A stretch of 64,000 bases of DNA from Escherichia coli (lineage in GTDB: Bacteria; Pseudomonadota; Gammaproteobacteria; Enterobacterales; Enterobacteriaceae). The position numbers and the translations under genes were made by a program. The notes below the pieces were generated by a model. That model worked only from the letters and a program-made list of their open reading frames with translations, ran no database searches and was not told where the DNA came from. The DNA lies in assembly GCF_003334785.1 (NCBI RefSeq), contig NZ_QOWV01000001.1. One strand, written 5' to 3'. This document shows, piece after piece, positions 60,448-60,465 of the stretch (the first letter of the stretch is position 1; the number at the start of each line of letters is the position of its first letter).

Positions 60448-60465
60448 CGTTTAGTACAATAAACA
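60448..60465. promoter_or_regulatory. NadR (NAD box) operator candidate upstream of pncB
   Basis: cGTTTA-gtacaa-TAAACA, near-perfect match to the TGTTTA-N6-TAAACA NAD-box dyad, 30-47 bp upstream of the pncB start. pncB is a known NadR target. Confidence 0.6.

Follow-up and report, generated by a model that had tools for sequence, protein, structure and literature searches.

Does the short inverted repeat that lies upstream of pncB in Escherichia coli serve as an operator for the NAD-responsive repressor NadR, or is its likeness to a NAD box due to something else in the region that separates pncB from its divergent neighbour pepN? The window in which we studied this question, namely the whole stretch of DNA analysed, is 64,000 nucleotides long and belongs to the E. 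coli chromosome. The 701-bp stretch around the dyad has a match in every one of the 5,426 complete E. coli genomes, in most cases with an identity of at least 99%, and the gene names pncB and pepN are the RefSeq annotation of this matching stretch in the complete E. coli genomes. The dyad, its two half-sites and the flanking genes are placed as follows.

60448 to 60465: NAD box, the very probable NadR operator of pncB, CGTTTA-GTACAA-TAAACA (on the pncB strand, TGTTTA-TTGTAC-TAAACG)
60448 to 60453: half-site on the side of the pncB coding sequence, CGTTTA (on the pncB strand, TAAACG); the sole non-consensus base is the C at 60448
60460 to 60465: half-site on the promoter side, TAAACA (on the pncB strand, TGTTTA), at least 95% conserved in box-bearing species
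59216 to 60418, minus strand: pncB coding sequence, nicotinate phosphoribosyltransferase, 400 aa (ORF list, RefSeq, and NCBIfam TIGR01514 equivalog at 621 bits)
60684 to 63296, plus strand: pepN coding sequence, aminopeptidase N, 870 aa, the divergent neighbour (ORF list, RefSeq)

The original prediction described the dyad as cGTTTA-N6-TAAACA located 30–47 bp upstream of the pncB ATG, and the letters at 60448–60465 together with the ATG at 60418 (minus strand) bear this out. The length of 265 bp that it gave for the divergent spacer is also exact (60419–60683, with the pepN ATG at 60684). Its remark that the spacer contains no other obvious dyad was slightly wrong, because ATGCCA-N13-TGGCAT (60526–60550), which has perfect 6-bp arms, and four 6-bp palindromes are present as well. 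The arm at 60545–60550 and the adjacent TCGACCAG are conserved across species, whereas the arm at 60526–60531 is not; therefore, this second dyad is probably either a chance occurrence or a component of the −35 region that serves the pepN start at 60577.

Considered as a bare inverted repeat, the pncB dyad is weak. Its perfect arms extend over only 5 bp (GTTTA/TAAAC), which is too short for an inverted-repeat search with a seed of 6 to report, and simple arithmetic leads one to expect approximately 0.26 inverted repeats of 5 bp at one fixed spacing in any 265 bp. The published NadR consensus is TGTTTA-N6-TAAACA (PMC2330246; PMC2330245), and the pncB site matches 11 of its 12 positions. It is the only match with at most one mismatch in the 64-kb window, for which shuffled sequences give an expectation of 0.12. 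At least one such match occurred in 11 of 100 shuffled windows, a rate that scales to approximately 5e-4 for the 265-bp spacer. The regions upstream of nadA and nadB in E. coli K-12 contain the nadA box TGTTTAGCATATAAAACA, the nadB box TGTTTAGTAAATTAAACA and the weaker TGTTTAGCAACTGTAACA. A weight-matrix scan with the nadA and nadB sites had been proposed as a check, and we performed it with a symmetrised matrix built from the K-12 nadA and nadB sites only (two to three training sites). The pncB site ranked first or second among 63,983 positions, which represents moderate support. Because the training sites are few and the score of the pncB site is reached somewhere in 11–33% of shuffled windows, the matrix score alone is not decisive; it is position and conservation, and not the motif score by itself, that decide whether the site should be called an operator. 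An extended perfect palindrome of 18 bp, TGTTTAGTATACTAAACA, is quoted as the Proteus niaP operator (PMC2330245), and by manual count pncB matches it at 15 of 18 positions, nadA at 15 of 18 and nadB at 16 of 18.

NadR is a trifunctional protein that combines a helix-turn-helix (HTH) domain at its N-terminal end with NMN adenylyltransferase and ribosylnicotinamide kinase activities. The nadR gene of K-12 (b4390) is a full-length match to the NF005988 equivalog (796 bits) and carries Pfam HTH_3 at residues 7–59; the gene lies outside the window, and we assume that this strain, as an E. coli, has it as well. With ample NAD, which serves as co-repressor, dimeric NadR occupies the 18-bp palindrome (PMC2330246). 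When NAD is low, the binding of ATP frees NadR from DNA; NAD lets NadR bind again by displacing ATP, and c-di-GMP reduces the binding of NadR to DNA (PMC12421817). The same study gives nadB, nadA, pnuC and pncB as the NadR-repressed genes, and its EMSAs of 2025 covered the nadB and nadA-pnuC promoters only, not that of pncB (PMC12421817).

A RegPrecise-derived NadR regulog of 11 Enterobacterales genomes includes pnuC in 11, pncB in six and nadB in five (PMC5343134 supplement), and it has been published before that pncB is a variable member of the NadR regulon; the exact string of the pncB site was not found in that supplement. For an E. coli clone that carries a mutated nadR, a rise of approximately 3-fold was reported for only “three of the four” genes under NadR control (nadA, pnuC and nadB; PMC11481515), and because pncB is not listed, its control may be weak. 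Our search of the literature found no NadR ChIP-exo data for E. coli. Gerasimova and Gelfand reportedly published a NadR regulon with a pncB entry in 2005. The pncB dyad is presumably the very site listed for this gene in RegulonDB and RegPrecise.

Whether a bound repressor could affect pncB depends on where transcription starts. Start sites were taken from Table S1 of Kim et al. (2012; PMC3415461), which uses NC_000913.2 coordinates, and they were mapped through the position of pncB (988377..989579 in version.2 and 989154..990356 in version.3, an offset of 777). The elements of the pncB promoter are as follows.

60476, minus strand: pncB transcription start site (TSS) with a 58-nt leader (Kim et al.: 989637(−), 180 reads, upstream sequence ending ...GGTATACTCCAGCAG)
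60483 to 60488, minus strand: pncB −10 hexamer TATACT (−12 to −7), placed from the TSS; GGTATACTCC has a conservation of at least 95% in box-bearing and box-less species alike
60505 to 60510, minus strand: candidate weak pncB −35, TTCAAT, 16 bp from the −10, proposed from the spacing and located in the conserved block 60521–60480

The box thus occupies +12 to +29 of pncB, with its centre at +20.5, and overlaps the downstream edge of the polymerase footprint. It is downstream of the TSS and not over the −10 or −35, which counts against the operator reading. A scan of the spacer with the sigma-70 consensus came back empty: at 8/12, the real pncB promoter fell below the threshold of 9. The start site also bears on a longer, 416-aa ORF with its ATG at 60466, inside the dyad. 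It is not coding, since its ATG would lie only 10 nt after the TSS, and its frame is not kept, since the distance from the box to the pncB ATG is 28 or 29 bp depending on the species. Just upstream of the pncB −35, and overlapping it, is a block, GTGTGATC-N-TTCAATAAA (60505–60521, minus strand), that is conserved with and without the box. Within it, TGTGA-N6-TTCAA resembles a degenerate CRP-type site, the centre of which, at approximately −36.5, is a non-standard activating position. In Raoultella (L057), an insertion of approximately 60 bp separates this block from the −10.

To follow the box across species, we surveyed 80 pncB loci of Enterobacteriaceae, with one genome per species and protein identities of 82–98%. 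TGTTTA-N6-TAAACG is found at 28–29 bp before the pncB ATG in 54 of these 80 other species, and among the box-bearing species the spacer hardly varies (TTGTAC, apart from four rare variants). The column profile shows conservation of at least 95% at 60464–60443 and poor conservation at 60477–60466, from the TSS to the box; because of this poorly conserved stretch, the box stands out as a distinct footprint, an island of conservation. Within the species, 5,424 of 5,426 E. coli genomes share exactly the same 34 bp, namely the box and 8 bp to either side of it. The non-consensus outer base (the C at 60448, the last G on the pncB strand) is invariant in all box-bearing species. The half-site on the coding side overlaps a leader element, AAACGCTCC..., that is universally conserved and is kept even in species without the box, and this overlap explains why the outer base stays off consensus.

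In the remaining 26 of 80 species, the box is absent from its fixed position, in agreement with the published variable membership of pncB. These box-less loci belong to Klebsiella, Raoultella, Trabulsiella, Atlantibacter, Mangrovibacter, Siccibacter, Franconibacter, Superficieibacter, Pseudescherichia and a few others. They are approximately 10 bp shorter at this place and have the same flanks, which read ...GATG-G-AAACGCTCCTGTGAGAGGATGC... in the box-less loci and GATG-TTTATTGTACT-AAACGCTCC... in E. coli; therefore, the two states differ by an indel of approximately 10 bp. The junction of the box-less state, GATGGAAACG, is common to all 26 of these species, with GATG[G]AAACG in place of GATG[TTTATTGTACT]AAACG (window 60449–60459; loci L028, L036 and L049–L083). 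When the pncB coding sequences are arranged in a neighbour-joining tree, every deep branch is box-less and the box-bearing genera form a crown group, within which Klebsiella/Raoultella and Trabulsiella are box-less exceptions. This tree, which is rooted at its midpoint and includes close relatives only, suggests that the box was gained by insertion. Because the 26 species without the box keep the pncB promoter and leader, NadR control of pncB is dispensable, and the conservation of promoter and leader in these species also counts against the operator reading.

Candidate boxes at other positions in the box-less species were considered as well. The sequence TGTTCAATATATTAAACT in Raoultella and Trabulsiella guamensis was rejected, as it reuses the conserved TTCAAT promoter motif, and TCTTTTCAATGCTAAACA in Klebsiella was rejected for its two mismatches. 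The sole perfect box elsewhere among the box-less loci is that of Enterobacter sp. Ag1 (L076), where TGTTTAGTACTCTAAACA (L076 1304–1321) lies 179 bp before the pncB ATG and may represent operator turnover. The synteny of this locus differs, in that the upstream neighbour is not pepN; it is a same-strand ORF of 406 aa without an NCBIfam match.

Immediately downstream of the box, the pncB leader contains a second conserved element.

60419 to 60447, minus strand: leader segment of pncB that adjoins the box, (AAAC)GCTCCTGTACGAGGACGCTACTGCGCACCT, conserved in all 80 species

The segment GCTCCTGTACGAGGACGCTACTGCGCACCT is more conserved across the 80 species than the third positions of the codons that follow, with or without the box. 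The fold of the leader RNA is no better than that of shuffled sequence (z = 0.44), and no Rfam match was obtained for the leader on the pncB strand. The leader has no Shine-Dalgarno sequence at the usual distance; there is only GAGGA, 16–17 nt before the ATG, which is located in a small UCCU/AGGA hairpin, on its 3′ arm.

The box is also associated with a start site in the opposite direction.

60468, plus strand: distal TSS in the pepN direction, 3 bp beyond the box (two independent maps, same base 989629 (+))
60455 to 60460, plus strand: distal pepN −10, TACAAT, inside the box (the spacer and the first T of the half-site), at −13 to −8 of the mapped TSS

Kim et al. (2012) recorded five reads for 60468(+), with a 216-nt UTR and the upstream sequence ...GCGTTTAGTACAATAAACATCT, and the Cappable-seq score at this base is 39.4, whereas the proximal pepN starts score 59.9 (60577) and 70.1 (60653) (PMC4782308). 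The NAD box covers −20 to −3 of the distal promoter, and the 5′ ends of the pncB and distal pepN transcripts overlap by 9 nt (60468–60476). No recognisable −35 was found in the sequence of the distal promoter. Among the species, TAnnnT is kept in all five spacer variants, and the conserved GTA/TAnnnT in the spacer could equally be explained by the extended NadR half-site TGTTTAGTA.

Several further observations concern pepN and its surroundings. A TSS falls exactly on the A of the pepN ATG, at 60684 (+) (989845 in NC_000913.2; seven reads in Kim et al. and a Cappable-seq score of 21.2). Kim et al. (2012; PMC3415461) place pepN among the leaderless mRNAs, alongside its starts at 60577 and 60653. 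The pepN 5′ UTR at 60586–60713 (+) gives a sub-threshold Rfam match to PepN_thermometer (RF02779) that is not significant (21.3 bits against a gathering threshold of 83, E = 0.15). Finally, four of the 5,430 places that match the region 60100–60800 in complete E. coli assemblies are on plasmid-labelled records, which may be explained by plasmids that carry a piece of chromosome or by replicons with the wrong label.

The distal pepN promoter gives rise to the first alternative, according to which the dyad is mainly the −10 core of that promoter and its likeness to a NAD box is incidental or secondary. Two maps agree on the start at 60468 and thereby put TACAAT within the box, the Cappable-seq score there is comparable to the scores of the proximal starts, and the TAnnnT core survives every variation of the spacer. 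However, a −10 hexamer leaves the conserved outer half-sites GTTTA and TAAAC, which extend past it, unexplained, and it accounts neither for the agreement with 11 of the 12 positions of the NadR consensus nor for the likeness to the nadA and nadB boxes. The promoter also lacks a recognisable −35 and yielded five reads against 180 for pncB in the data of Kim et al. We consider it improbable that the dyad is mainly a pepN promoter element; an operator that overlaps the distal pepN promoter is likelier than a pepN promoter only, and the two roles are not exclusive.

A chance inverted repeat in an AT-rich promoter region, with no regulatory role, is slightly less probable still. The shortness of the 5-bp arms, the commonness of generic 5-bp inverted repeats and the matching of the matrix score in 11–33% of shuffled 64-kb windows all speak for it, but matches to the consensus with at most one mismatch are expected only approximately 5e-4 times per 265-bp spacer, and this one precedes one of the few NAD genes. 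Moreover, the box forms a fixed-position island of conservation in 54 species amid variable flanking sequence, and the literature assigns pncB to the NadR regulon (PMC12421817; PMC5343134). The fixed-position island and the consensus match largely refute the chance reading and exclude it for practical purposes. The least probable explanation is one at the RNA level, in which the dyad, transcribed as +12 to +29, would form a GUUUA/UAAAC hairpin that affects the stability or translation of the mRNA. The location of the box within the 58-nt leader, beside a strongly conserved segment without a Shine-Dalgarno sequence at the usual distance, would suit such a role. However, the predicted minimum-energy fold of the leader leaves the half-sites unpaired and is unremarkable against shuffled sequence, a 5-bp A/U-rich stem would be very weak, no Rfam family is found on the pncB strand, and the rest of the leader is kept in species that lack the box.

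We therefore return to the operator reading and are confident that NadR uses the dyad as its operator (NAD box) at E. coli pncB. The consensus match, the position relative to the TSS, the conservation and the presence of NadR are results of this analysis, and binding and repression are taken from the literature. The original prediction that the dyad is consistent with NadR repression of nicotinate salvage holds up well, given the 11 of 12 consensus positions, the likeness to nadA and nadB, the proximity to the TSS, the conservation in 54 of 80 species and the HTH-bearing NadR of E. coli. The feature is already known, and the reading is correct but ordinary. NAD-loaded NadR at +12 to +29 would be expected to collide with RNA polymerase on its downstream side or to block early elongation, and occupancy of the box would then lower the amount of nicotinate phosphoribosyltransferase made. 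The position of the box, its one mismatch and the expression data of PMC11481515 suggest a milder repression than at nadA.

As a side observation, NadR on the box should also block the distal pepN promoter, a reasonable inference from the layout of the sites, because occupancy of the box must cover TACAAT. Our literature search found no link between NadR and pepN in enterobacteria. We tentatively raise the possibility, which we regard as rather doubtful, that the pncB box is a two-way switch, in which NAD-loaded NadR also shuts off the distal pepN transcript, and in which box and promoter arose through the indel of approximately 10 bp in the conserved pncB leader of one crown group of Enterobacteriaceae. 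If this were true, pepN would join the NadR regulon.

The pncB site belongs to the textbook picture of NAD homeostasis in E. coli and Salmonella, where it lowers nicotinate salvage when NAD is plentiful. Its confirmation adds no new biology; it illustrates that a real operator can be recognised from sequence alone. The details that may be of use to the engineering of NAD and NMN production or to studies of regulon change are the placement of the operator downstream of the TSS, the overlap with a divergent pepN promoter and the indel of approximately 10 bp. Also worth keeping in mind is the very strongly conserved pncB leader, which has no Shine-Dalgarno sequence at the usual distance.

In other phyla, NiaR and NrtR likewise repress genes of NAD synthesis and salvage, including pncB (PMC2330246; PMC2330245). 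These proteins are unrelated to NadR, recognise other operators and respond to other effectors (niacin and ADP-ribose), and they are not relevant to E. coli. The lac operator O1, centred at +11, is a familiar case of a dimeric HTH repressor that binds downstream of +1, inside the RNA polymerase footprint or at its edge. The pncB box shares this downstream placement, with its centre at +20.5 further downstream; unlike lac, no auxiliary operator for looping is evident in the pncB-pepN spacer. The closest counterparts are the NAD boxes of nadA-pnuC and nadB in E. coli and Salmonella, which have the same 18-bp palindrome, TGTTTA-N6-TAAACA, with the extended half-site TGTTTAG(T/C)A, and which have in common with pncB the regulator NadR, the co-repressor NAD and the pathway. 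The nadA box spans the main TSS (−8 to +10), and the dominant Cappable-seq start of nadA, at 781226 with a score of 136, lies inside it (PMC4782308), whereas the pncB box is located at +12 to +29. The pncB box further differs from those of nadA and nadB in that one outer mismatch is fixed by the overlapping leader element and in that the box is absent in approximately one third of Enterobacteriaceae species, and repression of pncB appears weaker than that of nadA and nadB. Compared with the pncB entry of the published NadR regulon (PMC5343134), the gene and the regulator are the same, membership is variable, and nothing essential differs.
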